Made by a program: the position numbers and the translations under genes | From: a virus | Taxonomy: Duplodnaviria > Caudoviricetes | IMG/VR virus record: IMGVR_UViG_3300034111_001022 | Location: 1 to 56,372 of that record | DNA length: 56,372 nucleotides | Reading direction: 5' to 3' (one strand) | In this document: positions 1,087-33,905 of the stretch, piece after piece | How positions within the stretch are numbered: the stretch's first letter is position 1 | Layout: each line of letters starts with the position of its first letter | The notes under the pieces: generated by a model | The model's database searches: none | Told to the model about the DNA's origin: nothing | Seen by the model: the letters and a program-made list of their open reading frames with translations, nothing else

Positions 1087-1488
1087 CTATAAGAAAGCAC
1101 GAATCGCTAATGGGTCAGCTGTTACTTTACCGATTAGATCCGTGTCTTTAAAAATTACGAACATTGCGGTCGTGTCGCTATCAACGCGCACTTCCCAACG
1201 ATCACCACCGTACTTGGCCACTCGAACAAAGTCACCCTTTTGACACCAAGCACCTTCAGGCCATAACTCCATAGTGTTACGGTTTTTGAAGGCCAACGGC
1301 CCCACTGTTACTACTCTTCCTACTTGCGTGTTCCACTTTTCTGTCTCTGTGGTTTCAGCCTGTAAAATAATACCGCCTGCTGTTTTTAACTTCGGTGCTC
1401 TAATTTGCACCAAAACATAACTCCCAAAAGGTGTTATTCCTGGGTCTGCATTTGGAAACGCATCATCCAGCGTTTGATCAGACATCAT
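1087..1488 (-). CDS. groES: GroES/Cpn10-like co-chaperonin
   Basis: PFGSYVLV...KTAGGIIL...GRVVTVG...GDFV..AKYGG...DTDLIG match the Cpn10 pattern. Confidence 0.85.
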   Translation of the reverse strand: MMSDQTLDDAFPNADPGITPFGSYVLVQIRAPKLKTAGGIILQAETTETEKWNTQVGRVVTVGPLAFKNRNTMELWPEGAWCQKGDFVRVAKYGGDRWEVRVDSDTTAMFVIFKDTDLIGKVTADPLAIRAFL

Positions 1489-1997: not shown

Positions 1998-4505
1998 TTA
2001 AAAGTTAGGATTTGGGTTAATGCCCGTGCCAGTTGACACGTCTACTTTGTTACCGCTCAATATCTCAGCTGCTGCAAGGTCCTTGGCCGTAGCGTTGTCT
2101 TCTTGGTTCATTTGCAAGCGTGCTGTTAAATCGGCCTGCTTACGTGCGTCCTCACGGTCTTGTTTAAGCAGCTCGGTTTGCATATCAAGCTCGTCCTGGC
2201 GAAGTTGCAAGCTAGCTTTGACCGCGTCACGCTGTGCTTGTGTCTGCGCTTGAACTTGATCACGCTGACCTTGCGCCTGTATCTTCATCTGATCAGACTG
2301 GGCACGTTGTGCAATAGATTGTTTTTGTACTTCTACTGCGGCCATAGTTGGATCTTGTGGTTGCTGTGGCTGCATTTGTTGCGCCATAGCGAACGCCTCT
2401 GAAACAATTTGCAAGAACTCTGGCGGTATCGCGCTTTCAATCGCTTGCTGTATCTCAACCGCTGCTTGTGCCTCAATCATCGCGTCGTCATTCAACTGGC
2501 CACTTTCGCTAGCCACGCTGAGGCCTTGGTTGGTGACCTTCATGTAGTGCATTAACAAGTGGTCTTTAATGTGCGCCACTATTGCCGGTACAAACATCGG
2601 TGCGATGATTGGATTTTGACCAAACATGGGCGACTGTAAGAACGCTAAGTGTACGCGCAAGTGGGCGATGTGCTCTTGCTCAAGCAACGCGCCGATTGGC
2701 TTGCCAACGGAGGCCGCAAAGTTCTCTTGTATGGGGTCGATGTTCTTAGGCTCAGGTTTTGGTATCAATAACTCAGAACCCTCTGGTATTTTTAGTTGTT
2801 TTAAGAATAATTCCTCAACCTTACGCACGTCATACAGCTGTGGCATCGCCATTGCGCGCTGTTGAACCGCCTGAATTTGCGCAAAACGCTGTGTTTCACT
2901 GAAAATATTGGGGTCTGAGACAGGAATAACGTCCATCGGACCGTCAAAATCTGACGGATCGACCATTTTCTCGCCAACTTCGTCAATTACCATCTCGTCT
3001 GTCAAATAAGCAGAGTTTAGGCGGTGCATTACCTTAAGAACTTGCGCCATTGAGTTGTGTAAGCGTGAGTGGATAGATGAAAACACCACCATGCCCTGCT
3101 CAATCAACGCTAAAGTCGTGCCAACTGGCATATTTGGGTTCTGATCTGACAGTTTTTCGAACGATGTCTGAACAACACCCTTACCTGCGTCAACCAAGAA
3201 GCCAAGCAACTGCATAAGTACTGGGCTTGGTGGGTTAAATGGTATCGGCATTGCAATCTTACGCACGTCGTCAACGTTGATGCCGCCCTCAATCTCTACA
3301 ACCTCTGTTGGTTGTGGGTTCAAGTTTTGGCCGTTAGGGCCACCCTTAAGCTTAAGCAACGTTGGGATGTTAGATATGTGTGCAGAGTCAAGCAACGCAC
3401 GCAGTGCGCCAGTGGCAGCGCCTGATAGGCCGCCAATCATATGTGTCAAGCCAATTGGGTACGCGCCGCGCCAGGGTACGAACGGGAACTCAACGATAGA
3501 GACCAGTGGCTCCTTGATTGTTGCGTCGCTCTCTGCCCAGTTACGGTACACGGACAAGCACTTTTCTGTGGCCTTGTCTACTGTGATGACGTACGGTAAG
3601 AACTCGTCGCCCTCAAGGTCAGCCGCCGTAGTGATTTCAAACACCGTGCGTAGGCCATCCTCGTTGTAAGAGTTGTCATTGCGACCTTCAATCTTGTCGT
3701 TGGCCTTGGTGGCCTTAGAGTAATCAATGTCATCCGCCATGCCGAGGTCAACCTCGCGGTACATGCCTGAGCGTACGCGTTTCTCGTACTCATACTTGGT
3801 GATGTACTGGACGTGCGTCTTGCGCTCGGCCGTGTGGAAGTTAGACGCAGCGAACGGTAGGTAGATGTCATCCACTGGAATGAACACTGACTCCGTGCGG
3901 TTAAGGTCCTTGTTCCAGAACAGCTTCATGTACTGCACGCCGCCTAGTGGCAACTGTGTCGTTAGCTGCTCAAGCTCAGAGCGGAACTCAGGCATCTGCT
4001 CGGTGAGCTGCCAGTTCATGTACTTGGCCTTGCGCTCAGCCTTCTCAAGCTTGGACTTGTTCTGTGTGCCTATGATTTTGCTGCGTACTGGGCCGTTCGG
4101 TGGGAACAGCTCCTTCATGGCGCGCGCTGAGAAGTCAACGCAGGCCTCTGTCATTAGTGGGTGCACGACCTTGTTGGCGCCTGTGAATGATGCGCCGCCT
4201 GGGGCGTCATCACCAAGGCCAGTACGACGAATGCCCTCTTCGTATTGCTCGTCGCGTTTTTTACGTGCGTCTTTGTCGCGCTCAATCTTTGTTATCAAGT
4301 CATCGACAATAGCAGCAAGGACACTAGGGTCGATGTCGTCAACGATGTTGGCAAAGTGCTCACTTTGGGTTTGATGGTCCTCTTCGTTCTCAAGCGTAAC
4401 CATCACGCCGCCGTCGTCAGTGTCACGGATGTCCGTGACCTCTTCGTCTAGCTCAACCGTCTCGCCCTTGAGTTCTTCCTCATCGTCCATCATGTCTTTA
4501 GCCAT
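1998..4505 (-). CDS. Portal protein (P22-like, Gln-rich C-terminal coiled-coil barrel)
   Basis: 835 aa, downstream of terL; VVHPLMTEACVDFSARAMKELFP, YMNWQL and LRALLDSA motifs. Confidence 0.85.
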   Translation of the reverse strand: MAKDMMDDEEELKGETVELDEEVTDIRDTDDGGVMVTLENEEDHQTQSEHFANIVDDIDPSVLAAIVDDLITKIERDKDARKKRDEQYEEGIRRTGLGDDAPGGASFTGANKVVHPLMTEACVDFSARAMKELFPPNGPVRSKIIGTQNKSKLEKAERKAKYMNWQLTEQMPEFRSELEQLTTQLPLGGVQYMKLFWNKDLNRTESVFIPVDDIYLPFAASNFHTAERKTHVQYITKYEYEKRVRSGMYREVDLGMADDIDYSKATKANDKIEGRNDNSYNEDGLRTVFEITTAADLEGDEFLPYVITVDKATEKCLSVYRNWAESDATIKEPLVSIVEFPFVPWRGAYPIGLTHMIGGLSGAATGALRALLDSAHISNIPTLLKLKGGPNGQNLNPQPTEVVEIEGGINVDDVRKIAMPIPFNPPSPVLMQLLGFLVDAGKGVVQTSFEKLSDQNPNMPVGTTLALIEQGMVVFSSIHSRLHNSMAQVLKVMHRLNSAYLTDEMVIDEVGEKMVDPSDFDGPMDVIPVSDPNIFSETQRFAQIQAVQQRAMAMPQLYDVRKVEELFLKQLKIPEGSELLIPKPEPKNIDPIQENFAASVGKPIGALLEQEHIAHLRVHLAFLQSPMFGQNPIIAPMFVPAIVAHIKDHLLMHYMKVTNQGLSVASESGQLNDDAMIEAQAAVEIQQAIESAIPPEFLQIVSEAFAMAQQMQPQQPQDPTMAAVEVQKQSIAQRAQSDQMKIQAQGQRDQVQAQTQAQRDAVKASLQLRQDELDMQTELLKQDREDARKQADLTARLQMNQEDNATAKDLAAAEILSGNKVDVSTGTGINPNPNF

Positions 4506-4514
4506 TTATAATCC

Positions 4515-7500
4515 TTAACAATTCCAACGTTTTAATGAGGCCGCCTTACGAGTTGGGTTACCTTGCTCGTCCTTCATCGGCCCCGGCATGCCAGACATTC
4601 TAGCGCAGAATGACTTGCGTCTACCGGCGTCCGCGTCTGTCTTTGGGTGCGGGGCCGGTGCCTTTAGGTTCGAGCCAGTGGCGTTGTTATACTTCGCGCG
4701 GCCCTTTGCAGTCAGCCCGGCGCCTTGTGACACCGGCAACTTCTCGCCTCTGCCTACTGATAAAACAGGGCCGCCTTTAGCGAAGCCTGGTGCGTTATCT
4801 TTAAACTCGTACATCGCATCATAGTCTACCTCGCCACCTTCTGCAAATGCGGGCTCATCTTTTTTATTCCAAAACGGTGACTGCCCACTTGCCTCACGCT
4901 TGTTAGCGCTGCGAATGGCCGTGGCCACTGCGTCTTCAGGAACGATACCGGTCTCACGGATGTAGTTCAAGTCAGCCGGGTGCATCCCCTCAATAATGCT
5001 CGGCATCTCGCGGCCGTCGACATTAATGGAGTACTCGGTCATCACGTCACGGCCGTTAGGCATACGGATCTCGCCCAAGGCACCAGTGTCCTTAGCCTCG
5101 CCAGTCTCACGGTCGCCGTAGTCTTTAAACTCGTACATGGAATCGTAGTCGATATCATCGGTCTCAACCGCGCCACCCTCTGCGTAGTTCGGCTCTTCGT
5201 ACTGCGGCAGCATCTTCGATACGCCACGGCCGTACTCGGCTGATCGTCTTTGTATCTCGGCCTCGGTTGCGCGTCTGCCGCGCTCCTTGATACCAGCCTC
5301 AACGCCGGCCATGTTCTCGTAGTAGTCACCGACGGCGTCGCTCTTAGGACCGGTGAACGGTGAGAAGAAGTAGTCTGTGTACTGGTAGGCCTTGCCCATG
5401 TCTCTAGCCACGTCAGCTGGGATGTCTTGTCTGACGCCGAAGTCGTAGCCACCGCCGTAGTTCAACGCCGCATCAAGCGGTGAGCGGTTCACTCGTGAGT
5501 TGCCGACCGTGTCTAGGTAGTTCTTCTTGAGCTCGCTCGATAGCGCGTCTGGGTACTTGCCGTGCTCGACCGCTTGCTTGTTGTACTGAATGCGATACTT
5601 GGCAGCCTTAGCTAGCAGCTTGGCCTTGTCCATCATTGATAGGCTGGCGAACGGGTCGCTAACCTTGCCGCCCTCTGCGAAGTTCTTGGTGTAGTTGATA
5701 CCCTTGTAGTAAGGCGACACGTTAACGCCAACGCTTGACTGATCGCGTGGGTCGGAACGGTAAACAGATAAGTTCTTGTATTGAGGCGACACGTTAAACC
5801 CTACCGTTGCCTGAGTGCGTGGGTCGGTGCGGTAAGCAGACCAGCCCTTCGCTAGTGGCTGGCGACCAACGCCATACTGCACACCGTCGTCTGTCATGTA
5901 ACGAGCGCGTAGCTCGCTGATGTCGTCACGCTTAATTTTTTGGCCTGGCTGCGTTACGGTGTAGCCGTCGTCGAACGTGTAGGTTCGAGCAGGCAACTTA
6001 AACACTTGGCCCTCTTTGGTAACACCGAAGCCGTACTTGTTTAGGATGTCAACGTCGGTGCTAAAGTTGTAGTGGCTGCCTGACGAGCTCGCACTGTCAA
6101 AGTTGCCGTAGTCACCTGACGCTCTAACGTTCAAGCCACCTTCGTCCATGTGAACTGGTCCGCCGCCAGCGAACTTCTGCTCGCTCTTGACGGCGTACGC
6201 TGGGTTCTTGGCGATAACCAACGGGCCAATCTGTAGTATCTCTTCGGCGCCGGATACAGGCTCCATCGTGTTACGGTCGTAGAAGTAGCCGTGACGCTCA
6301 GGGTCGTATCCAACCTGGACCCACTCACCACTGGCCAAGTTCTCTTGGGCCTTCTTGACCGCGTCCTCTTGGCTTATTGGGTTCCACTCGCCACGGATAA
6401 CAGCGAACGGCGCCTTGGGTCCGCCCTTGGCTACCTTTAACGCCTTGTCCGGTGCGCCTATCATGGTCGCGTTCTTAACTGACGACACTGAGTCGTATAC
6501 CGTCGGCGCGTTCTTGCGGTGAATAGAGTTAACCCACACGCCGTGATCCTTGTAGGCTGGGATGTCTAGGCGTAGGTCTGTCTGCTCACCAGCTGGGATC
6601 TCTGATGCCTTGCCGTACATTGGTTGCTTGTTCTTGGTGAGCGCGCGCATCGCGTCTTCGTATGTTGCTGGTGCTGGCACAAACGAGTACGGCTCAACTG
6701 GCTTGAGTGAGTTGACTAACCTGTCGTACTCGCTCGCGGTGATCTCGCCTCTGTCTAACTGATTGGCCGCCTTTGTCAGCTCAGGGACGCGCTTGGTGAC
6801 GTCCTTGAAGTTCATGTCTATGCGACTGACAGCCGGCGCAGCCTTGGGTGTTATGTACTGCTCGGCCATCTCACGTAAGCCCTTGGCTGCAGCCTTGACC
6901 ACACCGCCACCAGCGAACGCAGGTAGGCCTTGGTTGATCACATAGTCGCGTATCTCTGGCGTAATCTCGAAGCCCATCTGCTCAGACACGTTATTGCCAA
7001 GCTGCACGCCGATAGGTTTAACGCGCTCCGTTACACCCATTGATTTCAGTATATCGTTGGCAGTGCTGGGTATAATCTGATCGTAGTATGTCTTCATGCC
7101 CTCGCCGCCGACTCTAAGTGCATCAGCGTTATAAACTTCGCCACCAAGCCCTTGGGCTTCAATTTGTTTAGCCAAGTCGCTGCCGATGTAATCAGACACC
7201 GAACTCATAGGGATGTTCTTACCGATGCTATGCTCACCGCCACCTGGCAACGTTGCGAGCATTGATACTGTGTTGTCTGGATTCTTTGTAACCATTAGCT
7301 CATCAATCTGCTTAGCTAAGTTGTAACGATCAGCCTGCTGCGCGCCAGTAGTCCAGGCCAAATGGCTTTGCCCCTCGTCAACCGCGCGCTCGATGGCCTT
7401 CTTCAAGCCCAACGCTGTCCAGTCGCCTGTGTCTTCGACGTATGGGCCACGAGGTATGCCTCTTAGCTGAGGTATTTCACGTAGCGCTGCCCGCAATTCG

Positions 7501-8312
7501 CGAACCTTTTGAACCATAGGTGTAGAATCCTCACCGCGATTACGCATAGCCATGACTTCTAAATCTGCATTTTCTAACTCATTTTCCAATTGAATGCGAC
7601 GTTCTGCATTCAAGTCTGGTTCTAAGAACCCTTTCTTCCTACCCTGCTGCGCCCAGTCTGACTGCAGCTCCTCTAGGAACAGCACGTCCTTGTTGTCAGG
7701 TGTAAGCTTAATGTTGGTGCGCAGGTGAGCCAAGATGTTGGGCTCGTCGAAGTGACCAGAACTAAAGTTAGATGGGTCACGGAGTACATCGCTAAGGTTG
7801 GGCTGATCATACTCGCGTACCACCCAATCAGGATTGTTGTTGAGCTTCTCAAGCGTGCGCGCCGGTATGGGCATTGTGCCACTAGCAAGGACGGTTCCGT
7901 TAGCGTCTTTGATTTCAAAGGCCTTATCCATTCTTATTCTAGGTGAGCTTGTGTTTGGAGGCAGATGGATGAGCGTCTCGGTGTAGTCCTCGCCGCCTGG
8001 TAACACGTACTTGCCGTACTGGGTCTCATCGATACCATAACCATCAGCGCGGAGGTTCTTGGTATTAATCTTGGGTGAGTTCTCTTGAATGTGTTTGACG
8101 ATGTCCGCCTTGGACACCTTAGACTGCCGCGCTAGTAGCTCGTCTAGCTTGATCGCTAGTGCTTCTTTCTTCGCGGCCTTGGGTGCGTTAGCCTTGATGT
8201 ACGCTGCCCACTGTGAGCTGGGCATGGTCTCCATCTTATGCGCGATGATCGTTCTCTCTAGTGGAGAGAACATGTTCTTGATCTTGTTGAGTGCGCTAAC
8301 TGGGTTTGGCAT
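4515..8312 (-). CDS. Large modular (polyvalent-type) protein; segments delimited by seven AxGG-type motifs
   Basis: 1265 aa; N-terminal region has LFLEELQSDW, recalled from phage large polyvalent proteins; last segment resembles a small basic phage protein (RRKSFCARM...RWNC). Confidence 0.7.
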   Translation of the reverse strand: MPNPVSALNKIKNMFSPLERTIIAHKMETMPSSQWAAYIKANAPKAAKKEALAIKLDELLARQSKVSKADIVKHIQENSPKINTKNLRADGYGIDETQYGKYVLPGGEDYTETLIHLPPNTSSPRIRMDKAFEIKDANGTVLASGTMPIPARTLEKLNNNPDWVVREYDQPNLSDVLRDPSNFSSGHFDEPNILAHLRTNIKLTPDNKDVLFLEELQSDWAQQGRKKGFLEPDLNAERRIQLENELENADLEVMAMRNRGEDSTPMVQKVRELRAALREIPQLRGIPRGPYVEDTGDWTALGLKKAIERAVDEGQSHLAWTTGAQQADRYNLAKQIDELMVTKNPDNTVSMLATLPGGGEHSIGKNIPMSSVSDYIGSDLAKQIEAQGLGGEVYNADALRVGGEGMKTYYDQIIPSTANDILKSMGVTERVKPIGVQLGNNVSEQMGFEITPEIRDYVINQGLPAFAGGGVVKAAAKGLREMAEQYITPKAAPAVSRIDMNFKDVTKRVPELTKAANQLDRGEITASEYDRLVNSLKPVEPYSFVPAPATYEDAMRALTKNKQPMYGKASEIPAGEQTDLRLDIPAYKDHGVWVNSIHRKNAPTVYDSVSSVKNATMIGAPDKALKVAKGGPKAPFAVIRGEWNPISQEDAVKKAQENLASGEWVQVGYDPERHGYFYDRNTMEPVSGAEEILQIGPLVIAKNPAYAVKSEQKFAGGGPVHMDEGGLNVRASGDYGNFDSASSSGSHYNFSTDVDILNKYGFGVTKEGQVFKLPARTYTFDDGYTVTQPGQKIKRDDISELRARYMTDDGVQYGVGRQPLAKGWSAYRTDPRTQATVGFNVSPQYKNLSVYRSDPRDQSSVGVNVSPYYKGINYTKNFAEGGKVSDPFASLSMMDKAKLLAKAAKYRIQYNKQAVEHGKYPDALSSELKKNYLDTVGNSRVNRSPLDAALNYGGGYDFGVRQDIPADVARDMGKAYQYTDYFFSPFTGPKSDAVGDYYENMAGVEAGIKERGRRATEAEIQRRSAEYGRGVSKMLPQYEEPNYAEGGAVETDDIDYDSMYEFKDYGDRETGEAKDTGALGEIRMPNGRDVMTEYSINVDGREMPSIIEGMHPADLNYIRETGIVPEDAVATAIRSANKREASGQSPFWNKKDEPAFAEGGEVDYDAMYEFKDNAPGFAKGGPVLSVGRGEKLPVSQGAGLTAKGRAKYNNATGSNLKAPAPHPKTDADAGRRKSFCARMSGMPGPMKDEQGNPTRKAASLKRWNC

Positions 8313-8343: not shown

Positions 8344-8372
8344 ATTTTAACCCAGTATTAATTAAAATACAA
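8344..8372 (-). promoter_or_regulatory. Sigma70-like promoter for the 1265-aa gene
   Basis: TTGTAT-N17-TAAAAT in the AT-rich gap after terL. Confidence 0.5.
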
Positions 8373-9914
8373 CTACACAGCGTACGGATTACTTCTTTCT
8401 TTTGGTGGCGCTTGTCCGTACTCAACCTGGTTGCCGTCGATGCTCAGCATGCGCGTGTCACGCAAGTAAATCAACGCCTGCGTCATGCTGTCGACCATGT
8501 CGTCGTGCTCGCCGTTAGGGAAGATCATCAGCTCGTGCATCATCGCGTCTGTCCACGCCGGTGCGCGGCCTGGGTTCTTCTTCGACTCAGGCAAGTACAC
8601 CAGGCCAGACTCAAGCAAGGGCGCAACCGCGTGAACGCGTGTCACCTTGTCTGCGCGACCAGGGTTGTACGGATGGCAAGGCACACCGCTGCGACGCAAG
8701 TCTTGCATAAGACTTATGCCCGATCCCTTCTCCTCGATCAGCACCACGTCGACCGTCTTGTCCTTGTCGCCGTACTTGGACCGGTACTCGTCGCCCATCT
8801 TCTTACGCAGGTCAGGGTAACCGAGGTGCTCCTTCCAACAGTCAAGCAGCACGACCGCCTTGCCGCCCTCGGTGTTGATCACGCCCCAGGTGCTGCAGGC
8901 CGTTGGGTCGTTCTGTGTCTTCTCGGTGAAGGCCGTGTCGTAAGACTGCACAACGTACATGAGCTTAGGTAACGGCTTATCTGCTGGCAGCAGCTTGAAC
9001 CAGTCACGCTTGATGATACCACCAGCGGCCGGTGACGGACGTTGCTGCAACTGGCCAGACGTGCCGTACTCGCCAAGCTGTACCTTCAGCTCGTCAATCT
9101 CTTTCATGCCGAAGCGACCCTTCCACAGCAGCTCACCGTCCTCGGTGCGTGGGTCGTAGTTGCCTAGCGTGGTCTTGCTGCGTCGACCCTTCTCGAACTG
9201 AGCTGGCAAGCAGAGGTGATCCCAGCCGCCCTGTCTGAGTATGTGGCCAGAGAGGTCGTTCTCGTGCAGCCGTTGCATCACGATCACCTTGCAGCCGGTC
9301 TTTGGATTGTTGAGACGCGTGCTCATCGCCTGGTCCCACCACTCAAGCGTGGACTCGCGCATCGTGTCTGACTGCGCCTCCATCGAGTTGTGCGGGTCAT
9401 CGACAACCAGCACGTCACCGCCGTGGCCAGTGGTCGACGCGCCAACAGAGGTCGCGAACCGGTAGCCGGACTTGTCGTTCTCGAAGAAGGTCTTAGCGTT
9501 CTGGTCACCAGTCAGCGCGAACCTGTGGCCCCAGCGCTCTTGGAACCAGGGCGACTCGATCAGTCGGCGGCACTTGAGTGAGTCACGCACCGACAGACTG
9601 ATCGCGTACGAGGCGAACAGCCAACGGAACTGCGGCTGCGTCATCCACACCCACACCGGCCACATCACAGCGACCTGTATCGACTTCATGTGCCGAGGTG
9701 GCACGTTGATGAGCAGGTTGCGTATCTCGCCGCGCGTGACGGCCTCCAGGTGCTCGGAGATGGTATCGAGGTGCCAGTTGCCGATGTAAGGCGTGCCAGG
9801 CTCGATGACGTGCCAGGCCATCTTAGTGAACTCGCTCAATGACCGCTCAGCGCGGCGCCTGTCGTGCTCAAGCTGGATGTCCCGCAGCGGGATCACGTTG
9901 GACATGTCAATCAT
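8373..9914 (-). CDS. terL: Terminase large subunit
   Basis: INVPPRHMKS Walker A, VLVVDDP Walker B, QSYDTA and HDDMVDS nuclease motifs. Confidence 0.95.
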   Translation of the reverse strand: MIDMSNVIPLRDIQLEHDRRRAERSLSEFTKMAWHVIEPGTPYIGNWHLDTISEHLEAVTRGEIRNLLINVPPRHMKSIQVAVMWPVWVWMTQPQFRWLFASYAISLSVRDSLKCRRLIESPWFQERWGHRFALTGDQNAKTFFENDKSGYRFATSVGASTTGHGGDVLVVDDPHNSMEAQSDTMRESTLEWWDQAMSTRLNNPKTGCKVIVMQRLHENDLSGHILRQGGWDHLCLPAQFEKGRRSKTTLGNYDPRTEDGELLWKGRFGMKEIDELKVQLGEYGTSGQLQQRPSPAAGGIIKRDWFKLLPADKPLPKLMYVVQSYDTAFTEKTQNDPTACSTWGVINTEGGKAVVLLDCWKEHLGYPDLRKKMGDEYRSKYGDKDKTVDVVLIEEKGSGISLMQDLRRSGVPCHPYNPGRADKVTRVHAVAPLLESGLVYLPESKKNPGRAPAWTDAMMHELMIFPNGEHDDMVDSMTQALIYLRDTRMLSIDGNQVEYGQAPPKERSNPYAV

Positions 9915-10444
9915 ACGTCGGTCACCACCTTAAGACCATCTAGGCTCTCGTCTGAGGCCTTCGCGGTTAGTCTGAGGTACTCGGCTAGCTCGTCATCAGT
10001 TAAGCGGCTCAGCTTGATCTCACTAGCCAGCGAGCCGTTGATGTTGATGTTCTTGCTCTCGACCTTGTCAACGTAGAGGCCGCTGACCTTCCCTCGTAGC
10101 ATCTCGCCGTTGATGGCAGCAGAGTACTGATCCTTGGCTGCAGCGAGGTCACTCAGCTGGCCCAACTTGATTAGGTGCTCTTCGAGTGTGATCTGCACCT
10201 TCTTGATCACAGGAGCGCGTAGCTCGGCAATCCTTGCAATTAGCTTGGGTTTTGACATGAGCTCATTTGCAGCTCGATAAATGGTTGAATCCTTGTAGCG
10301 ACTGGTGTCGTAGGCCGCTCTGTAGGCATCTGACTGGTTGTTGCCCCTGACAATGTTCTGACAGAAGACCTCCTCTTGCGCGGTAAGACCGCTTGGCATT
10401 AGCGCCTTTGACGCTGTCTTGCGTGACTCACTTACTTCACTCAT
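9911..10444 (-). CDS. terS: Terminase small subunit
   Basis: LTAQEEVFC...NQSDAYRAAY...ANELM HTH-type terS pattern, overlaps terL start. Confidence 0.85.
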   Translation of the reverse strand: MSEVSESRKTASKALMPSGLTAQEEVFCQNIVRGNNQSDAYRAAYDTSRYKDSTIYRAANELMSKPKLIARIAELRAPVIKKVQITLEEHLIKLGQLSDLAAAKDQYSAAINGEMLRGKVSGLYVDKVESKNININGSLASEIKLSRLTDDELAEYLRLTAKASDESLDGLKVVTDV

Positions 10445-13059: not shown

Positions 13060-15519
13060 TTAGAATTCTACCTTTTCTAAAAATCCACCACTTTTGTTGC
13101 TGTGAAAGTCTCGCACGATGTTTTTTACCTCCGTCACTCGTGGGTCATCGACCGCGCCCCTAATCCACACATAATGATGCCCATCGTTGTAGATCTTTAT
13201 CTTACGTCCAGGGATGGGTGAGTACCCCATCTCAGACAAGATAATAGAGGCCGTCCTATTCTTAGGTAGCTCGCCGCCCTGGCCCAAGACAACCTTATTC
13301 ATCCAGGTAACATCAACAATCTTATCGTTAATAACCTCGCAGTTGTTGTTGCTGATAGCGTCGTCGATTAGATCCCAATCAGGCGACACGCTCAAGGCTT
13401 TCATCTCGCGCTTGGCCCCGGTGTCCGGCGCACGTCCGCTAGGATCAAAGCTGTCGGCAATCTTCCTGTTAAGCAAGAACCTAGCGATAGCGTCTGGACG
13501 ACGACGCGTGTTAGCGAACAGGTCGTCGAAGTACTCGCGGGCTTTCTCACGGCCACCGAAGGCGTCGAACAACTCCTCCTCGCTCTGTATCCTAGAGAAC
13601 ATAGCGCAATAGCGGCGCTCACCGTCGCCCAAGGGCACGGCGTCCTTGTGGTTAGTCAGCAGCAAGTACGACGTGAAGTTAGGCACGGTCCGATGATCGC
13701 GGCCCTTCTCCTCGATCTGAATGGTCGAGTTCGATATGATCGGCTTCAACTTGTCCAGTATCTCGTACTTGTTAGTGCCGGCGATACGGATCTCTTCGAC
13801 GACCGTCACGATAGAGCCGTGAGCCCAGCCGGTGAATCGGCCAGAGATGGCCTGCGTGTCTAGCGACCGAACATTGCTGCCGAGCAGCTCCTCGAAGACG
13901 TTACCGAAGTAACTCTTGCCGGTACCAGGTGCACCCTGCAGCAGCATCGCCCAGCCCACGCGCTTGCCTGGGTTCTGATAGATGTAGGCCATCCAATCTA
14001 GTAACAGGTCCTGCTCGTACTGCGACTCAAGCGTGAAGGCGACGTGCTTCAAGAACATGTCGACCACCATCTGACCGTCGTCGTCAATCGTCTCGCATGG
14101 GCTGACGCCCTTGGGTGAGTACGAGTTCATCATGCGCTTGTGCTCGTACGTGAAGAACTTACCGGCAGCGGGGAAGAACATAACGTCCACCACGGTCTGA
14201 AGGTTGTAGTTAACCAATGCAAGCTGTGAGGCCTGACGCTCGGCAGCCAAGCACTCAGGCTCGCGGTCGAACTTAGCGTTGAAGGCCTCGCGCTTGATCA
14301 TGTAGTCGGCCACGTCAGCGTTAGCGAACGAGCAGGTGTTCTCGACGTAGACCCAAGGGTCCAGCCAGTCCGGCTGCACGACGGTGTTAGCCCTGGCGAC
14401 GCGAGAGGCCTGCATCTCTTTGGTGATGGCGCCCTTGGCGACCTTGTTAATCTTACCGAAGTGATCAGCGAGCTCACTCACGACACCGGACCGGTAGACC
14501 GGCGGTAGGACGTGGTCGCTCATGGCGGTGATCTTGTCCTTGAACTTCTGGTACTCGTCGAAGGTGGCGACCTTCGAGGCCTCAAGCAGCAAGGTCTCGA
14601 ACATGTTATCCACAGCCACGACGCCGCCGGCCTCTTTGACCCAGTGCATGATAGAGGCGAACGTGATGGGCGACTCGGCGCCACCGAACGACTGCCACTT
14701 GGGAGCCATCTCTGCCTCATCGAACCGATCACTGTCAGCGCTGGACCAGGCGACCCAACGCTCAAAGCCTGCGGCCGAGCCTTGGAACTGATGAAAGAGC
14801 GCCATCCCTACCTTGACCCAAGTGTCGTACGGGGCCTGGGTAGGGTCGAGCGCGGACAGGTAGGCGTCGACCATCTCAGGTGTGATGTCGAGCGGCTGGT
14901 TGGCGAGCGCGGAGCTGAGCTCATCGAGCTCGTCGTCTGAAGAGTCTACCGTGACGTGTCTCTCGACGCCGTGTATGACGTCGGGCACGAGTAGCTCGTC
15001 GCCCTCTTGCGTCATGGACCAGTGATCACCGCCCTCAGGGTGCTGAGGCAAGAACATAGCCTGGTTAGGCACGGAGGAGCACTTGTCGAAGGCCTCGAAG
15101 GGGATGGTCGTGCCCAGCATGAAGTTAATCGCCAGCGCGCGGTACTCGTCAGGCGTGACCTCACGGCTGAGCGGGAGCACAACGCGGATGCGTGGGCGCT
15201 TGCTGTCGTGACGGTAGCTTGAGTAGGCGACGAAGGTGCCGCGAATGCTTATCTCTAAGTCAAACGCCAGATCGTCAATCGTGCCAACGTAGCCGTCGAT
15301 GTCTAGGACCATCAGCGTACGGGCGATCATGAACTCTTCCTTGCGCACGTCACCGCTGTAGTATCCACCGACCAAGTACTTGCCGCCCTTCTTATCGGCG
15401 ACCGCGTGAGTCGATAGCTGCTTCATTATATGTTGCCAACCGCGAACGACGGCGGCTACCTTATTACTCGATTCTGTCTTACCAATCGAGAGCTTGTATG
15501 TTTTCATTGGAGTGTCCAA
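13060..15519 (-). CDS. Primase-helicase (N-terminal primase-like, PriCT-2, C-terminal SF3/D5-like ATPase)
   Basis: LDID and YSSYRH..RPRIRVVLPL; YDTWVKVGMAL...WS...KWQSF; GAPGTGKS Walker A, VVEEI Walker B. Confidence 0.85.
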   Translation of the reverse strand: MDTPMKTYKLSIGKTESSNKVAAVVRGWQHIMKQLSTHAVADKKGGKYLVGGYYSGDVRKEEFMIARTLMVLDIDGYVGTIDDLAFDLEISIRGTFVAYSSYRHDSKRPRIRVVLPLSREVTPDEYRALAINFMLGTTIPFEAFDKCSSVPNQAMFLPQHPEGGDHWSMTQEGDELLVPDVIHGVERHVTVDSSDDELDELSSALANQPLDITPEMVDAYLSALDPTQAPYDTWVKVGMALFHQFQGSAAGFERWVAWSSADSDRFDEAEMAPKWQSFGGAESPITFASIMHWVKEAGGVVAVDNMFETLLLEASKVATFDEYQKFKDKITAMSDHVLPPVYRSGVVSELADHFGKINKVAKGAITKEMQASRVARANTVVQPDWLDPWVYVENTCSFANADVADYMIKREAFNAKFDREPECLAAERQASQLALVNYNLQTVVDVMFFPAAGKFFTYEHKRMMNSYSPKGVSPCETIDDDGQMVVDMFLKHVAFTLESQYEQDLLLDWMAYIYQNPGKRVGWAMLLQGAPGTGKSYFGNVFEELLGSNVRSLDTQAISGRFTGWAHGSIVTVVEEIRIAGTNKYEILDKLKPIISNSTIQIEEKGRDHRTVPNFTSYLLLTNHKDAVPLGDGERRYCAMFSRIQSEEELFDAFGGREKAREYFDDLFANTRRRPDAIARFLLNRKIADSFDPSGRAPDTGAKREMKALSVSPDWDLIDDAISNNNCEVINDKIVDVTWMNKVVLGQGGELPKNRTASIILSEMGYSPIPGRKIKIYNDGHHYVWIRGAVDDPRVTEVKNIVRDFHSNKSGGFLEKVEF

Positions 15520-17999: not shown

Positions 18000-19769
18000 A
18001 TGTTTGTAATCGATACCGAGGTCTACTCGGATTATTTTCTACTCTCGATGCTGCGCCTAGATGATGGCAAGATCCGTCACTTTGAATTTCACGCAGACGC
18101 CAAGCTTGATGTAAATAAAATCACGGCACTGTTTAAGACAGAGACCGTTATCAGCTTCAACGGCAACAGCTACGACATACCTATTATCAGTGCAGCCCTA
18201 GCTGGCTACACCAACCAAAAGATTAAAGACCTATCCGACAGTATCATTAAGAGCAACCAGCCGAGCTGGACGATACTGCGTGCGCATAAGTTTGAGCTAC
18301 TAAAGACAGACCACATCGACCTAATCGAGGTCGCCCCTGGGCGCTCTAGCCTTAAGATCTACGGCGGCCGCATGAACGCCCCTAAGATGCAAGACCTACC
18401 GATTGACCCTAGCAGCAGAATATCCCCAAGCCAACGAGCTGAGCTACGCCAGTACTGCGAGAACGACCTACACACGACGGCCATGCTGTACAAGGCGCTG
18501 AAGCCGCAGATTGACTTGCGCGTCACAATGAGCAAGCAGTACGGCATGGACTTACGCAGTAAGAGCGATGCGCAGATTGCCGAGACGGTGATCATCAGCG
18601 AGCTGACTAAGATCACGAACGAGGGCTACGGCAAGGTAACGCTGAAGGACAACACGACCTTTAACTACACCGACCCTAAGATTGTTAACTTCACCGACAC
18701 GGCGCTTAACCTACTGATCAACAGCCTGTGCGAGCACAAGTTCACGCTAGGGTTGAACGGCGCGGTGCAGATGCCGGACTGGCTACGCAACACTAAGATT
18801 AATATCGGCACGGCCGAGTATCAGATGGGCATCGGTGGCCTGCACAGCTGCGAGAAGTCGCAGTACATCAAGGCAGACGACGAGAACATACTGCTAGAGC
18901 TAGACGTGGCCAGCTACTACCCGAACATTATCCTGCAGCAGCGATTGGCGCCTAAGAGTATGGGCGCGCCGTTCTTGCGCGTGTATCAGACAATAGTCAC
19001 TAGGCGCCTAGAGGCCAAGCACCGTGGCGACAAGGTAACGGCCGACGTGCTTAAGATTGCCGTCAACGGTAGCTTCGGCAAGCTTGGCAGTAAGTACAGC
19101 GCGCTGTTCGCGCCTGAGCTACTGATACAGACAACCATCACCGGTCAGCTTGCGCTGCTTATGCTGATCGAGGCCGTAGAGCTAGCGGGCGCCAGGGTAG
19201 TCAGCGCCAACACCGACGGCGTGGTGATCCTATGCCCACGCAAGCTAGAGCACAAGATTGAGGTGGTGGCGTTCGACTGGATGCTTCGTACCTCGTTTGA
19301 CCTAGAGCGGACAGACTACCGAGCACTAGCCAGCCGTGACGTGAACAGCTACGTGGCCGTCAAGCTAGACGGAAAGACCAAGGGCAAGGGCGTCTTCGCT
19401 AGCACTAGCCTGGCTAAGAACCCAGACGACCCGATCATCGCCCACGCGGTGGCCCAGTACGTCGCGCACGAGATCCCGCTAGAGATAACGATACGCAACT
19501 GCCGTGACATCACGCAGTTCATTACCATACGACGCGTCCAGGGTGGCGCCACGTGGCAGGGCGAGTACCTAGGTAAGGCGGTGAGGTTCTATCACAGCAA
19601 CGCCGTACCGAGCGCGCAGTGCATTCACTACGCTAGTAACAGTAACCGCGTACCGAACTCAGCGGGTGCGCGACCATTGATGGAGTTGCCAGACACGTTC
19701 CCGACGGACGTTGACTACAACTACTACCTGGTTGAGGCTGAGAAACTTTTATGTGAGGTAGGATTGTGA
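18000..19769 (+). CDS. DNA polymerase, family-B-like, with 3'-5' exonuclease
   Basis: IDTE, FNGNSYD, YCEND exonuclease motifs; LDVASYYP, KIAVNGSFGK, NTDG polymerase motifs. Confidence 0.85.
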   Translation: MFVIDTEVYSDYFLLSMLRLDDGKIRHFEFHADAKLDVNKITALFKTETVISFNGNSYDIPIISAALAGYTNQKIKDLSDSIIKSNQPSWTILRAHKFELLKTDHIDLIEVAPGRSSLKIYGGRMNAPKMQDLPIDPSSRISPSQRAELRQYCENDLHTTAMLYKALKPQIDLRVTMSKQYGMDLRSKSDAQIAETVIISELTKITNEGYGKVTLKDNTTFNYTDPKIVNFTDTALNLLINSLCEHKFTLGLNGAVQMPDWLRNTKINIGTAEYQMGIGGLHSCEKSQYIKADDENILLELDVASYYPNIILQQRLAPKSMGAPFLRVYQTIVTRRLEAKHRGDKVTADVLKIAVNGSFGKLGSKYSALFAPELLIQTTITGQLALLMLIEAVELAGARVVSANTDGVVILCPRKLEHKIEVVAFDWMLRTSFDLERTDYRALASRDVNSYVAVKLDGKTKGKGVFASTSLAKNPDDPIIAHAVAQYVAHEIPLEITIRNCRDITQFITIRRVQGGATWQGEYLGKAVRFYHSNAVPSAQCIHYASNSNRVPNSAGARPLMELPDTFPTDVDYNYYLVEAEKLLCEVGL

Positions 19770-20764: not shown

Positions 20765-21024
20765 AGCGTGACATAGAGAAGGCGTTTGTTAAGCGGGTTA
20801 AGTCACTAGGTGGCATGGCTGAGAAGTTCACGTCACCCGCCAAGCGCTCAGTGCCTGATCGAATTGTCACGCTGCCTGGCGGCAAGATTATCTTTGTTGA
20901 ACTAAAGAAGCCAGGCGCAAAGCCTACCGAGCTGCAGGTGCGCGACCATGACATCCGTCGTGCATTCGGCTGCGACGTCAGGGTTATCTCTACTATGGAG
21001 CAGGTCGATGCGTTCCCTGAGTGA
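20758..21024 (+). CDS. VRR-NUC domain nuclease
   Basis: ERDIE...VPDRIV...FVELK...Q; start re-assigned to MLERD. Confidence 0.9.
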   Translation: MLERDIEKAFVKRVKSLGGMAEKFTSPAKRSVPDRIVTLPGGKIIFVELKKPGAKPTELQVRDHDIRRAFGCDVRVISTMEQVDAFPE

Positions 21025-22348
21025 TCTACACCAGTACCAGCTGCACGCGATTAATTTTATCAAGCAACAGAAGCGCTGCCTGCTAGCCATCTCGATGGGC
21101 CTAGGCAAGACCATCTCAACGCTGACGGCCGTCAACGACTTGATAGACTCGTTCACGATACACAAGACCCTAATCATCGCACCACTGCGCGTGGCTAACA
21201 GCGTATGGGCGCAAGAGGCCGAGCTGTGGGAGCACACCAAGCACTTAAAGATTAGCGTCTGCACGGGCAACGAGCGGCAGCGGCTGACGGCGCTTATGCA
21301 AGACGCTGACGTCTTCGTGATCAACCGTGAGAACGTCGAGTGGCTAGTCAAGTCGCAGAAGAAGTGGCGTTTTGATTGCGTGGTGGTCGACGAGTCCGAC
21401 TCATTCAAGAACTCTAGCTCTAAGCGCTTTAGGGCGCTACGCAAGGTGCTGCCAGACACGACGCACATGATTTTATTGTCAGGCACCCCGTCACCCAATG
21501 GCCTACTCGATGTCTGGGCGCAGATGTACCTGATTGACTTCGGTGAGCGCCTAGGTAGGACCATGACGGCGTACAAGGACCGGTTCTTCGAGAAGGACTA
21601 CATGGGCTACAACTTCACACTACGTGAGGGTAGCGCCGGTAAGATACACGCCCTGCTTAGGGATAAGGTGTTGAGCATGAGCAGCGAGGACTACCTTGAG
21701 CTGCCTGATCGTATTAGCCTGGTCGAGGCCGTAGACTTACCGCCGACAGCACTGCGCGAGTACAAGGACTTTGAGACCACGCTACTGGCGACCTTGCCCG
21801 ATGGCGAAGAGATCGAGGCCATGAACGCGGCCGTGCTAGCCGGCAAGCTACTGCAGTACGCCAACGGCGCCATCTACACCGACGAGCACCACAACTGGAC
21901 TCACATTCACGACGTTAAGCTGGACGCACTAGCCGAGATCATTGAGAACAACAGCGGTGAGAACATACTGGTCGCGTACAACTTTAAGCACGATCTGGCC
22001 AAGCTTCAGCAGCGGTTCCCTACCGGCGTCGCGTTAGACAAGGACCCCAACACCGTCACGCGTTGGCAGCAGGGTAAGATTAAGCTTATGTTCGCTCACC
22101 CACAGAGCGCCGGTCACGGGCTTAACCTTCAAGACGGTGGCTGCCTAGCCGTTTGGTTTGGCTTGACGTGGTCACTTGGCCACTACCAGCAGTTCAACGC
22201 GCGGCTGCACAGGCAAGGTCAGCAGCGCCCAGTGCGAATTATTCACATAATTGCTAACGGTACGATAGACGAGCGAGTGGTGTCAGTATTGAGTTTGAAG
22301 GGCGCCGTACAAAATAATTTGCTAAATGCGTTAAAAGTACAAAAATAA
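21008..22348 (+). CDS. SNF2-like SF2 helicase
   Basis: LHQYQ, MGLGKT, VVDES, LSGTP, GHGLNLQ, ARLHRQGQ; start re-assigned to MRSL. Confidence 0.9.
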   Translation: MRSLSDLHQYQLHAINFIKQQKRCLLAISMGLGKTISTLTAVNDLIDSFTIHKTLIIAPLRVANSVWAQEAELWEHTKHLKISVCTGNERQRLTALMQDADVFVINRENVEWLVKSQKKWRFDCVVVDESDSFKNSSSKRFRALRKVLPDTTHMILLSGTPSPNGLLDVWAQMYLIDFGERLGRTMTAYKDRFFEKDYMGYNFTLREGSAGKIHALLRDKVLSMSSEDYLELPDRISLVEAVDLPPTALREYKDFETTLLATLPDGEEIEAMNAAVLAGKLLQYANGAIYTDEHHNWTHIHDVKLDALAEIIENNSGENILVAYNFKHDLAKLQQRFPTGVALDKDPNTVTRWQQGKIKLMFAHPQSAGHGLNLQDGGCLAVWFGLTWSLGHYQQFNARLHRQGQQRPVRIIHIIANGTIDERVVSVLSLKGAVQNNLLNALKVQK

Positions 22349-25097: not shown

Positions 25098-25433
25098 ATG
25101 ACAATAAAACTACTAATACGGTTAATAGAAATAATTATTAACCCATCACTTTGGTTTTCATACAACGAGTGGGTTAAACCATTTTGTAAACAACATGCCG
25201 TTTACGTTGAAAACGATCAACAGAAGTCGCTTCGATACAAATTTATTATTTGGCGGCAACTTAATCGTATACGAGCCCGCCACTGCGCAGTTTACTTAAA
25301 TATAGCGTACCCAATATATTGTGAGTACGAATTAGGCAAACGAGCAATTCCAAGTGACGTTATTTCTTTTTTCGAGCGTCGTGAGATCTTGCTTTTTGTT
25401 CTACAGAAACAAGTTTCGGTGTTTTCGGATTAA
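25098..25433 (+). CDS. Possible XRE-like HTH protein
   Basis: AAGGAG RBS; WRQLNRI...CAVYLNIAYPIYCEYELGKRAIP resembles an XRE HTH. Confidence 0.5.
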   Translation: MTIKLLIRLIEIIINPSLWFSYNEWVKPFCKQHAVYVENDQQKSLRYKFIIWRQLNRIRARHCAVYLNIAYPIYCEYELGKRAIPSDVISFFERREILLFVLQKQVSVFSD

Positions 25434-29421: not shown

Positions 29422-29423
29422 GA

Positions 29424-33892: not shown

Positions 33893-33905
33893 TTTATTAC
33901 CCCTA

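Follow-up and report, generated by a model that had tools for sequence, protein, structure and literature searches.

Toxins and effectors that are anchored through MuF or SPP1 gp7 carry a variable payload at their C-terminus. The T4 Alt protein and the T4 internal proteins possess a capsid-targeting sequence that is cut by the prohead protease. In the tail fibres of T-even phages short conserved motifs, the His-boxes, flank variable segments and coincide with module exchange; they operate within a single functional class, the adhesins, presumably through DNA homology. Clan-CE cysteine proteases of adenovirus, ASFV and vaccinia cut core polyproteins at GG-X or AG-X. Most relevant here are the phage polyvalent proteins, for which the main text of Iyer et al. 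2017 (PMC5512222) describes two to fifteen unrelated domains per polypeptide. A zincin-like metallopeptidase is proposed there as the processing device, such a peptidase being a common theme and not a strict requirement, and a paucity of these proteins is described for cyanobacteria and archaea; the words 'linker' and 'glycine' are absent from that main text (PMC5512222). Polyvalent proteins are regarded as a principal route by which phages deliver pre-made counter-defence and takeover functions, and little is understood of the assembly, exchange, loading and release of their domains beyond a few cases that bear a peptidase.

We analysed a window of 56,372 nucleotides (the whole stretch of DNA studied), in which all features described below lie on the minus strand. 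An open reading frame for a protein of 1265 aa, P0001 (4515..8312, stop codon included), is flanked upstream by terL (8373..9914; phrog_38, E 8e-96; Terminase_6C) and downstream by the portal gene (1998..4505; phrog_1216, E 8.5e-16), so that the gene which an earlier, sequence-only reading had placed between terL and portal is real. The portal ATG lies 9 nt past the P0001 stop, and the order terS-terL-P0001-portal is part of a block of about 40 kb of minus-strand structural genes. The same reading held that terL and portal are usually adjacent, as they indeed are in both roseophage isolates inspected, CRP-902 and CRP-9; CRP-902, the closest isolate by TerL (49.6% identity), has no gene between the two. 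In CRP-9 and MW202675 large proteins that bear module B or module A (see below) adjoin the portal, and in phage DSL-LC05 and MW202675 several small genes of unrelated kinds (DUF6321, HNH, dUTPase, GroES) lie in the interval from terL to portal. Of the promoter claimed for P0001 the hexamers exist: TTGTAT-N17-TAAAAT is present at 8344..8372, within the 60 nt that separate terL from the P0001 frame. The match does not exceed chance; it agrees with only 8 of 12 consensus positions and falls under the scan threshold, and over 12 kb the scan gave 6 promoter-like sites where shuffles predict 9.0. Both hexamers are kept in relatives with a spacer that varies, which makes them, as far as alignment can tell, conserved yet statistically not distinctive.

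Sequencing runs containing the stretch bear the label lake-water or freshwater metagenome, except for one that is called just 'metagenome'; shares below 0.2 and uncovered bins were not counted as evidence. Two lake-water runs contain all sampled words of the stretch, and both are flagged as possible sources of the record. Our main reading, to which we assign a probability of roughly 0.6, is that P0001 is a polyvalent cargo protein which occupies a hypervariable slot in an uncultured, lake-water, podovirus-like lineage and is delivered together with the DNA.

P0001 consists of six autonomous modules (A to F) strung together by a conserved peptide joint of the form hydrophobic-A-x-G-G-x-V. The sequence-only reading had divided the protein into about six dissimilar segments on the basis of motifs that were all found, both in the first part (EELQSDW at aa 214, RLDIPAY at 581, RHGYFYD at 673) and in the tail half (MTEYSI at 1091, GQSPFW at 1143, RRKSFCARM at 1231, RWNC at 1262). 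The division is real and sharper than claimed, since the segments are bounded by six [FY]AxGG joints. Modules are mutually dissimilar (the best pair scores 27.7 bits at 20% identity), and each of the six recurs independently in other proteins, which is also the outcome of searching the segments separately as the earlier reading had advised. Searches of Pfam (P0001 whole and as six segments, E<=10), NCBIfam and PHROGs returned only DUF6321 and unnamed PHROGs. In the PDB, neither the full-length sequence nor profiles built from A and B had a sequence match. No recognised enzymatic family was found among the six modules, and P0001 contains no peptidase family (Pfam, PHROGs, NCBIfam) and no known anchor domain.

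In module A (aa 1-465; 6918..8312) the N-terminal part is helical (aa ~17-78), and the core (aa ~95-465) has the invariant residues N192, H196, R198, E215, Q217, D219, W220, Q222, R329 and Y330. The module matches the representatives of 9909 clusters (50% identity) at E<=1e-3, many of them within proteins of 2000-6800 aa, and has no match in Pfam, NCBIfam or PDB. Its first 84 aa are 92-95% identical in P0015, P0017 and P0019 against 42-68% for the remainder of A; these 84 aa were considered as a lineage-specific anchor and rejected, because residues from ~14 onward belong to the widespread A domain of giant proteins. Module B (aa 471-713; 6174..6902; RLDIPAY...DPERHGYFYDR) is predicted as an alpha/beta domain in its AlphaFold model (pLDDT 82.0, pTM 0.77). 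That model found no match in the PDB (best E 0.19, TM<=0.15), and neither did the model of A (pLDDT 82.4; best E 9e-3, TM<=0.15). In BFVD module B has 18 matches at E<=1e-3, the best eleven being in large proteins of uncultured phages; the BFVD structure search gave only further uncharacterised phage proteins and no function, and the ESM Atlas gave no usable match for A (top score 0.83 against a bar of 0.9) or B. The C-terminal half of B weakly resembles small proteins of the mycobacteriophage L5 gp82 type (Pfam E 0.003; BFVD ranks 13-19). A search for host or prophage copies found module B only on seven MAG contigs of mixed taxa, too little to name a host from. A and B represent two large domain families whose confidently predicted folds are without a counterpart in Pfam, NCBIfam or PDB.

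Module C (aa 719-877; 5682..6158) carries two tandem units of 24 aa (aa 826-849 and aa 850-873, with 14/24 residues identical). Module D (aa 883-1042; 5187..5666) has one stand-alone relative (P0294, 168 aa, 43% identical) and probably also exists as a small gene of its own. Module E (aa 1048-1155; 4848..5171; GEIRMPNGRDVMTEYSI...GQSPFW) is encoded elsewhere by stand-alone genes of 114-140 aa. The 29 proteins that consist of E alone have their Met start directly past the box described below, and 22 of them contain the joint; their basic tail, RGxGxxxRGKTKGRF, is absent from the window. Module F (aa 1182-1265; 4518..4769) is basic (net +11), carries the only two Cys residues of P0001 (1236 and 1265) and contains DUF6321 (Pfam PF19846) at aa 1197-1263, with 84.6 bits against a cut-off of 28.5, or 90.5 bits when the segment is searched alone. 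Stand-alone DUF6321 genes start where module F starts. The earlier statement that this tail is a stand-alone small gene in aquatic phages was borne out by genes of 87 aa and 78 aa in Phage DSL-LC05 and Prochlorococcus phage P-GSP1, and by tblastn of P0001, which matched 73 phage records, mostly through module F. In P-GSP1 the neighbours of the gene, in the middle of the genome, are hypothetical genes rather than annotated virion genes.

The joint motif is the new lead of this analysis. Six copies of [FY]AxGGxV are present in P0001, at aa 466, 714, 878, 1043, 1156 and 1177. Joint 1 (FAGGGVV, aa 466-472; 6897..6917) coincides with a cluster of BLAST break-points; break-points and contig skips coincide with joint 2 (FAGGGPV, aa 714-720; 6153..6173) and joint 3 (FAEGGKV, aa 878-884; 5661..5681). 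The others are accompanied by MYEFKD boxes: joint 4 (YAEGGAV, aa 1043-1049) is followed by the box DYDSMYEFKD (aa 1055-1064; together 5121..5186), and the box DYDAMYEFKD (aa 1163-1172) stands between joint 5 (FAEGGEV, aa 1156) and joint 6 (FAKGGPV, aa 1177; together 4764..4847). In P0001 and 120 homologues among the matches listed, the broad motif [FYWLMIV]AxGG occurs 387 times against a shuffle mean of 30.8 (20 shuffles). Internal BLAST break-points lie within 25 aa of a joint in 252/293 cases (22.4% expected) and within 10 aa in 144/293 (10.2% expected). The Ala and Gly codons of the joint vary among synonyms (46 distinct instances), so it is the peptide and not the DNA that is conserved; for this reason we rejected the possibility that the joint is kept as DNA for homologous recombination. 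Only the 17-nt ATGTACGAGTTTAAAGA, common to both boxes, is identical at the DNA level. Among A-bearing giant proteins in a wider set the joint shows only weak enrichment (127 occurrences, shuffles giving 81) and is absent from 66/144, which makes it a trait of the clade rather than one general to polyvalent proteins.

At the joints, modules have been added, dropped, exchanged or put into another order in related phages. Among phages with TerL 93-98% identical, at least eight module orders occur in the slot between terL and portal. Besides A-B-C-D-E-F in P0001 these are A-B-C-D-F (L002), A-B-X-C-D-F (L003), A-B-C-D (L004), A-X-D-E-F (L006), A-C-D (L007, L008 and L009, the last being cut), A-X-C-E-F (L108) and A-E (L115); L005 (A-B-X-C-D..) ends at the edge of the locus and is indistinguishable from L003. 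E stands ahead of C in L109 and ahead of D in L116, where the flanks are less similar or missing. Contigs from other lake samples lack aa 466-716 (B), 883-1058 (D), 1064-1150 (E) or everything from 1171 onward (F): the stretch missing for B spans joint 1 to joint 2, that for D opens at joint 3, and the remaining skips end within or beside the MYEFKD boxes. The close clade has module A at the N-terminus, whereas L012/L013 have it near the C-terminal end and it was undetected in the slot proteins of L113/L116; no module that could serve as an anchor is common to all slot variants. The comparison of this interval among related phages, which the sequence-only reading had recommended, thus shows variable content, and its modular view holds, as homologues are not co-linear and segments occur separately. 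This gives good support to the view of P0001 as an accessory chain whose modules can be exchanged.

By its domain neighbours P0001 can be placed in the class of polyvalent proteins (PMC5512222), because A and B sit in phage proteins beside ART-PolyVal, LPD23, PcfJ, SLT and GDSL. Within single polypeptides A or B is also combined with RadC, FtsK_gamma and DUF7178, and the BFVD matches to B are labelled ART-PolyVal, PcfJ, lysozyme and zeta-toxin. In P0019 ART-PolyVal takes the position after A, and joints flank ART, DUF6321 and SLT in P0019 and P0048. The link to effectors suggested earlier is upheld to the extent that relatives carry ART-PolyVal, SLT, GDSL, LPD23 and PcfJ in the same slot or polypeptides; the label 'effector' rests on these neighbouring domains, because neither A nor B, though modelled with confidence, resembles a solved structure. 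P0001 further combines six dissimilar modules in one chain, belongs to a phage with portal and terminase, lies among late or virion genes and is connected to the recognised domain network indirectly, through the companions of A and B. The concept of a multi-effector cargo is not new and equals that of the polyvalent protein (PMC5512222).

The joint also occurs in other proteins of this phage. In the DNA-ejection protein P0125 (878 aa; 29424..32060) GYAEGGAV is found at aa ~302, directly past the conserved ejection domain (aa 16-300). GYAxGGAV at the end of the N-domain is kept in 7/7 close relatives (N-domain identity >=62%), and in most of the distant relatives listed the frame ends at or near this point; the joint marks a fusion point in P0125. 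The virion protein P0127 (1353 aa; 25360..29421), with an N-terminal SLT domain, has a joint-like LAEGGLV at aa ~901, and P0126 (631 aa; 32060..33955) has FARGGLS at aa ~125 and ends in ...AYMKGGLR. The Lys-rich P0124 (136 aa; 52663..53073) contains YAEGG at aa 22 and YAKGG at aa 32; the YVKEFDFG ahead of these resembles the MYEFKD box.

We infer that P0001 is probably packaged in the capsid and injected, and that it may be cleaved at its joints. Late synthesis would follow from the position of its gene, which lies close to portal in what we take to be the late head operon; this position, together with a joint common to ejection proteins, makes it likely that the protein is late, packaged and delivered. 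It would be loaded into the capsid and enter the host with the DNA, and several independent functions would then act ahead of phage gene expression. With less confidence, the joints may be flexible tethers and at the same time a recognised signal for the processing or loading of modules.

The head-gene location and the joint shared with three large ejection-type proteins (25360..33955) would equally suit a structural internal-virion protein of the ejectosome or core, in which the modules are spacers or envelope-penetrating parts and not effectors, and relatives with SLT or lysozyme domains, typical of ejection proteins, point the same way. We nevertheless consider this unlikely: a fixed role fits poorly with module sets that differ at TerL 93-98% identity, down to A-C-D. 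In CRP-902, moreover, nothing separates terL and portal. The phage studied here has an ejection set of its own elsewhere (25360..33955; phrog_4287, SLT N-terminus, tape-measure-like C-terminus), and P0001 matches no ejection-protein PHROG.

Less probable still is a late, cytoplasmic, multi-domain protein that is never packaged, a parked fusion of accessory genes with inert Gly-rich linkers as joints. The small unrelated genes in the gap of DSL-LC05 and MW202675 suggest a general parking place, modules E and F are also free genes, and neither an anchor nor a protease was found in P0001, nor a peptidase family among 16 other window ORFs scanned with Pfam. Inert linkers, however, are not expected to be as constant as this peptide, which persists in many contexts despite varied codons and recurs both at the fusion point of the ejection protein and in most stand-alone E proteins; the wider family is also tied to portal-adjacent positions. 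A chimera created during assembly, or a fused pseudogene in decay, which a mosaic pattern in a metagenome-derived record might suggest, is effectively refuted by open frames of 873-1430 aa (873 for the A-C-D version) in the same slot on independent viral contigs that hold the slot whole inside the locus, and by break-points that are in frame and located at joints; the two lake-water runs with all sampled words, though possible sources of the record, also speak against it.

Returning to the packaged polyvalent cargo, we tentatively propose, though the odds are rather against it, that the joint serves as a portable signal of its own, marking a site for processing, for loading into the capsid or for both, by which any domain may be plugged into the ejected cargo. 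If so, the joint would also stitch extra domains onto ejection proteins and persist on stand-alone small proteins, and the gene between terL and portal would be one face of a plug-and-play system of cargo cassettes with a putative reader (a protease or docking site). The locus offers unusually clean natural material, as TerL and portal flanks are nearly identical while module sets differ, and one short peptide marks almost every seam, including that in the ejection protein. Three questions become directly testable here, namely if the seam is a cleavage or a docking site, which factor reads it, and how each module acts when expressed by itself.

Compared with known systems, P0001 resembles the MuF and SPP1 gp7 toxins in that a variable payload, thought to be capsid-borne, is encoded beside portal (as far as described in PMC5512222). 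Unlike in those toxins, its gene precedes portal instead of following it, the slot variants are without a constant anchor module common to all, and no MuF domain is matched in P0001 by Pfam even at E<=10. T4 Alt, the T4 internal proteins and P1 DarB/DdrB are comparable as proteins that a short peptide signal directs into the head and/or that are processed, and that are then injected and act early (PMC5512222 treats Alt and DdrB); these T4 and P1 proteins have a single function, an N-terminal signal and a known protease, whereas the candidate signal of P0001 is internal and present in six copies. In contrast to the T-even His-boxes, the joint connects unrelated modules and its codons vary. By analogy, a Gly-Gly after a small or hydrophobic context recalls the GG-X and AG-X sites between units of virion-core precursors, but no protease family of the clan-CE type was matched by Pfam in the 16 other window ORFs. 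The resemblance to polyvalent proteins, as the main text of PMC5512222 presents them, extends to many unrelated domains, a virion-gene context, extensively mosaic architectures and predicted delivery with the DNA, and A and B share chains with ART-PolyVal, LPD23, PcfJ, RadC and lysozyme/SLT. P0001 differs from the proteins described there in having no Pfam-defined polyvalent domain and no zincin-like metallopeptidase (PMC5512222), in its position upstream of portal, directly after terL, and in modules that are bounded by a conserved [FYM]AxGGxV joint.

P0001, the 1265-aa protein encoded in the terL-portal interval (4515..8312, minus strand), is composed of autonomous modules exchanged at joints that are conserved as peptide; it occupies a conserved slot and is a member of the polyvalent-protein network. 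The ORF is a real, well-delimited feature of a complete IMG/VR virus (56,372 bases, CheckV 100%): terL (8373..9914) lies directly upstream, preceded by terS (9911..10444), and the portal gene (1998..4505) follows downstream, its ATG 9 nt past the P0001 stop. All motifs by which the sequence-only reading divided the protein into six segments are found (aa 214, 581, 673, 1091, 1143, 1231 and 1262). DUF6321 (aa 1197-1263, 84.6 bits against a cut-off of 28.5) is the sole Pfam family in P0001, and scanning the six segments one by one at E<=10 yields no further credible Pfam family.

Modules A (aa 1-465; 6918..8312, minus strand), B (aa 471-713), C (aa 719-877), D (aa 883-1042), E (aa 1048-1155) and F (aa 1182-1265) are mutually dissimilar, the top-scoring pair reaching 27.7 bits at 20% identity. 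The joints are six copies of [FY]AxGG, then x-V, at aa 466, 714, 878, 1043, 1156 and 1177, and a repeated box, DYD[SA]MYEFKD, follows joints 4 and 5. For P0001 and 120 listed homologues (147,136 aa) the joint consensus is [FYMV]-A-[EKGQD]-G-G-x-V, and 387 instances of the broad pattern [FYWLMIV]AxGG were counted, where 20 shuffles give 30.8 on average. The joint is conserved as peptide and not as DNA, because its Ala and Gly codons differ among synonyms, both within the window and across 46 distinct instances from related loci; in the latter all synonymous codons are used, with a bias to GCA for Ala.

A word-seeded protein search scored 8000 candidates, 339 of them reaching E<=1e-3; the 120 listed were compared with P0001 by BLAST. 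Full-length co-linear homologues had been named beforehand as the outcome that would speak against a modular protein; the opposite is seen in these 120, where colinearity breaks at the joints. From 293 internal HSP ends, 144 fall within 10 aa of a joint (10.2% expected) and 252 within 25 aa (22.4% expected). Beside a TerL of 93-98% identity we find eight distinct slot orders, the window (A-B-C-D-E-F) counted and L005 excluded. These are A-B-C-D-F (L002), A-B-X-C-D-F with an X, a segment other than A-F, of ~270 aa (L003), A-B-C-D (L004), A-X-D-E-F (L006, on the same contig as L110), A-C-D (L007, L008 and the cut L009), A-X-C-E-F (L108) and A-E (L115); L005 (A-B-X-C-D..) is cut at the locus end and cannot be told from L003. 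Where flanks are less similar or missing the order is permuted: A-X-E-C in L109, cut before terL, and ..E-D in L116 (TerL 74%). Module A was not detected in L113 and L116 (TerL 73-74%). Even at a TerL identity of just 41-48% (L011-L016) a large gene after terL still bears B, with A downstream of B in L012 and L013, and a portal match lies 3' of it in all but L016, which is cut.

The flanks are better conserved than module A (TerL 93-98% against 53-85% identity), and for modules B-F identity reaches 89-99% in 22 of 25 matches, the lower ones being C in L004 (73%) and L003 (81%) and E in L115 (88%). A joint is present at nearly every seam of the compared relatives; only the A|C seam of L007-L009 departs from this, with the hybrid joint variant FGKGGPV. 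A second break-point is seen within A at aa 84-95: three related proteins (P0015, P0017 and P0019) retain aa 1-84 at 92-95% identity, followed by ~100 added residues and a far more divergent A core (42-68%). The structure model of A has low confidence at aa 91-95.

Similar rearrangements are observed in sequencing runs containing the stretch, which are labelled as lake-water or freshwater metagenomes (one merely as metagenome) and two of which are a possible source of the record. Four runs were compared at 88% likeness, a level that includes relatives, and the skipping joins come, as intended, from other organisms; runs X23 and X24 represent one sample. Contigs join across 6165-6915 (aa 466-716), skipping module B from joint 1 to joint 2; across 5138-5666 (aa 883-1058), skipping D; across 4863-5123 (aa 1064-1150), skipping E between the two boxes; and across 4509-4801 (aa 1171 to the end), skipping F.

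Segments also occur separately, as the sequence-only reading would have it. A search for shorter proteins with C-D-E as query returned 37 small proteins, of which 29 are complete E-only proteins (114-140 aa) with the initial Met just past the MYEFKD box. The eight left out of this count are pieces or cut (P0274-P0276, P0283, P0284, P0286 and P0305) or, for P0294, a stand-alone D of 168 aa at 43% identity. Open frames for stand-alone E are also present in L117 (136 aa) and L118 (125 aa). At their C-termini 22 of the 29 carry a joint-like [Y/M/K][K/A]xGGxV and then a basic tail RGxGxxxRGKTKGRF, the strict joint motif fitting 7 of the 29. This tail, conserved as RG[HD]G[IC]ExRGKTKGRF in 22/29 (among P0277-P0310), looks like a mini-module; it is absent from the window. 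As the sequence-only reading states, the P0001 tail exists as a small gene in aquatic phages: tblastn of P0001 matches 73 phage records, mostly to aa ~1180-1265 alone, and DUF6321 is a free-standing gene in many cyano-, pelagi- and methylophilales phages. In DSL-LC05 it is a gene of 87 aa directly after terL, 5' of GroES and portal, and in P-GSP1 one of 78 aa in mid-genome; both start where module F starts past joint 6. GroES in DSL-LC05 lies just upstream of portal, sharing the gap with DUF6321; in the window a GroES/Cpn10-like gene (1087..1488, minus strand; Pfam Cpn10, E 7.5e-09) lies just 3' of portal.

The joint is not confined to P0001. Six-frame translation of the window yields 19 instances of the broad motif, and 16 lie in open frames of 100 aa or more. 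Of these 16, seven belong to P0001 (the six joints and VAKGG within module B), one each to a 1353-aa SLT protein, an 878-aa DNA-ejection protein and a 631-aa protein, two to a 136-aa Lys-rich protein, two to plus-strand frames overlapping other genes, and two to an 852-aa protein (VANGG and VAVGG, probably by chance). In the ejection protein the joint, GYAEGGAV at aa ~302, comes immediately after the conserved domain (phrog_4287, aa 16-300). Of 79 related loci, 12 have a motif between -30 and +60 aa from the domain end, and every one of the 7 close relatives (ORFs of 932-1218 aa, N-domain identity 62% or more) is among them; in most of the distant relatives listed the ORF stops at or near the domain end (~300-370 aa). 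Since most distant ORFs listed end there and close relatives keep the motif, the joint marks a fusion point. In close relatives the joint sits at almost every module seam; it also coincides with the ejection-protein fusion point and with the appendage at the C-terminus of stand-alone modules.

Further genes of the window can be described as well. Three large consecutive proteins (25360..33955, minus strand) resemble a podovirus ejection set, each with at least one joint-like motif: the 631-aa protein has a tape-measure-like C-terminus, the 878-aa protein carries the DNA-ejection domain and is a fusion relative to the ~300-370-aa homologues in most distant phages listed, and the 1353-aa protein has an N-terminal SLT. 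The 136-aa Lys-rich protein (52663..53073, minus strand), for which no family was found, has YAEGG and YAKGG 10 aa apart, preceded by YVKEFDFG, which is MYEFKD-box-like, and ends in ...LMCGGKVKK. A tail-collar domain (47998..48561, minus strand; E 6.6e-14) and a weak SU10-adaptor-like match (51436..52422, minus strand; E 0.0018, below the cut-off) are consistent with a podovirus-like tail. The replication block comprises a primase-type protein with PriCT_2 and DUF5906 (13060..15519, minus strand), a protein with an RNase_H-superfamily 3'-5' exonuclease-like N-terminus (18000..19769, plus strand) and a SNF2-family helicase (20948..22348, plus strand). The structural block wraps from window start to window end, and the record ends cut a gene, as the ORF at 55929..56372 (minus strand) is 5' open and runs off the linear record.

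The family to which module A belongs is very large and has no name: among 1.84 billion cluster representatives, phmmer matches 9909 at E<=1e-3, of which 2175 reach E<=1e-30, and the core of A (aa ~95-465) often sits inside proteins of 2000-6800 aa. From nine such giants scanned, five contain ART-PolyVal (one to six stretches; RadC also in one, FtsK_gamma in another) and four no Pfam family. The invariant polar residues N192, H196, R198, E215, Q217, D219, Q222, R329 and Y330 suggest a putative active or binding site. The model of A is confident (pLDDT 82.4, pTM 0.71), with no match in the PDB. The core, whose clusters at 50% identity number at least 9909 and sit mostly within giant multi-ART proteins, is without counterpart in Pfam, NCBIfam or PDB and would deserve its own family definition. 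Module B (pLDDT 82.0, pTM 0.77; invariants R110, D112, H127, K162, R202, H203 and R209 in segment numbering) likewise has no PDB match. At E<=1e-3 it matches 18 BFVD entries; the eleven best are within large proteins of uncultured phages, some of them bearing the labels PcfJ-like, ART-PolyVal-like, LT_GEWL, tail lysozyme or zeta toxin. For C, D and E no family was found; C holds a tandem pair of 24-aa units, AYRTDPRTQATVGFNVSPQYKNLS and VYRSDPRDQSSVGVNVSPYYKGIN (aa 826-873; 5742..5837, minus strand), with 14/24 identical. Module F is basic (net +11) and contains the only two cysteines of P0001.

Of the promoter proposed in the sequence-only reading, the hexamers TTGTAT (8372..8367) and TAAAAT (8349..8344) are present with a 17-nt spacer, but they agree with the consensus at only 8 of 12 positions, below the scan threshold, and the scan gives 6 sites against 9.0 expected in 12 kb. 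The 60-nt gap between terL and the ORF is 91% identical across ten relatives; TTGTAT is kept in nine and TAAAAT in eight (TACAAT in the other two), with a varying spacer. This hexamer conservation, among close kin, is compatible with a promoter. An RNA-library contig (3857 nt) covers terS, terL and module A, and is evidence of neither transcription nor a single transcript. With moderate confidence, P0001 would be expressed late with the head genes, loaded into the capsid and delivered with the DNA. The joints might tentatively serve as a cleavage or docking signal; against this counts the lack of any peptidase family in the proteins scanned (16 other window ORFs with Pfam, P0001 and five further proteins with NCBIfam).

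The domains found alongside A and B in related proteins include ART-PolyVal, LPD23, PcfJ, SLT, GDSL, ASCH and DUF7178. In P0019 ART-PolyVal occupies the position after A, and in P0019 and P0048 ART, DUF6321 and SLT are flanked by joints. This company puts P0001 among the phage-type polyvalent proteins of Iyer et al. 2017 (PMC5512222); the domain catalogue of that paper, in a supplement outside the literature search, may include equivalents of A or B. A MuF domain is absent from P0001. In Roseobacter phage CRP-9 a large A- or B-bearing protein (gp54, 1395 aa) lies one small gene after portal, and in MW202675 two genes after portal; the retrieved part of the CRP-9 paper (PMC8528129) does not discuss gp54 and holds no virion proteome. 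In CRP-902, the closest isolate by TerL, terL and portal are adjacent, so the P0001 gene is accessory. The literature search gave no paper mentioning DUF6321 and no phage-biology paper on ART-PolyVal; going by titles and abstract beginnings, there was no phage paper among the matches listed for the joint pentapeptides and no account of the terL-portal slot for polyvalent proteins near terminase and portal. Capsid packaging and delivery are predicted for polyvalent proteins, with zincin-like peptidases named as processing device, in the retrieved text of PMC5512222; P0001 is without peptidase. The joint is clade-specific: in the wider A-bearing giants its enrichment is weak (127 observed against 81.3 shuffled) and 66 of 144 proteins are without it. 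Summarizing, the kind of protein, polyvalent, is known; what is new is the conserved peptide joint.
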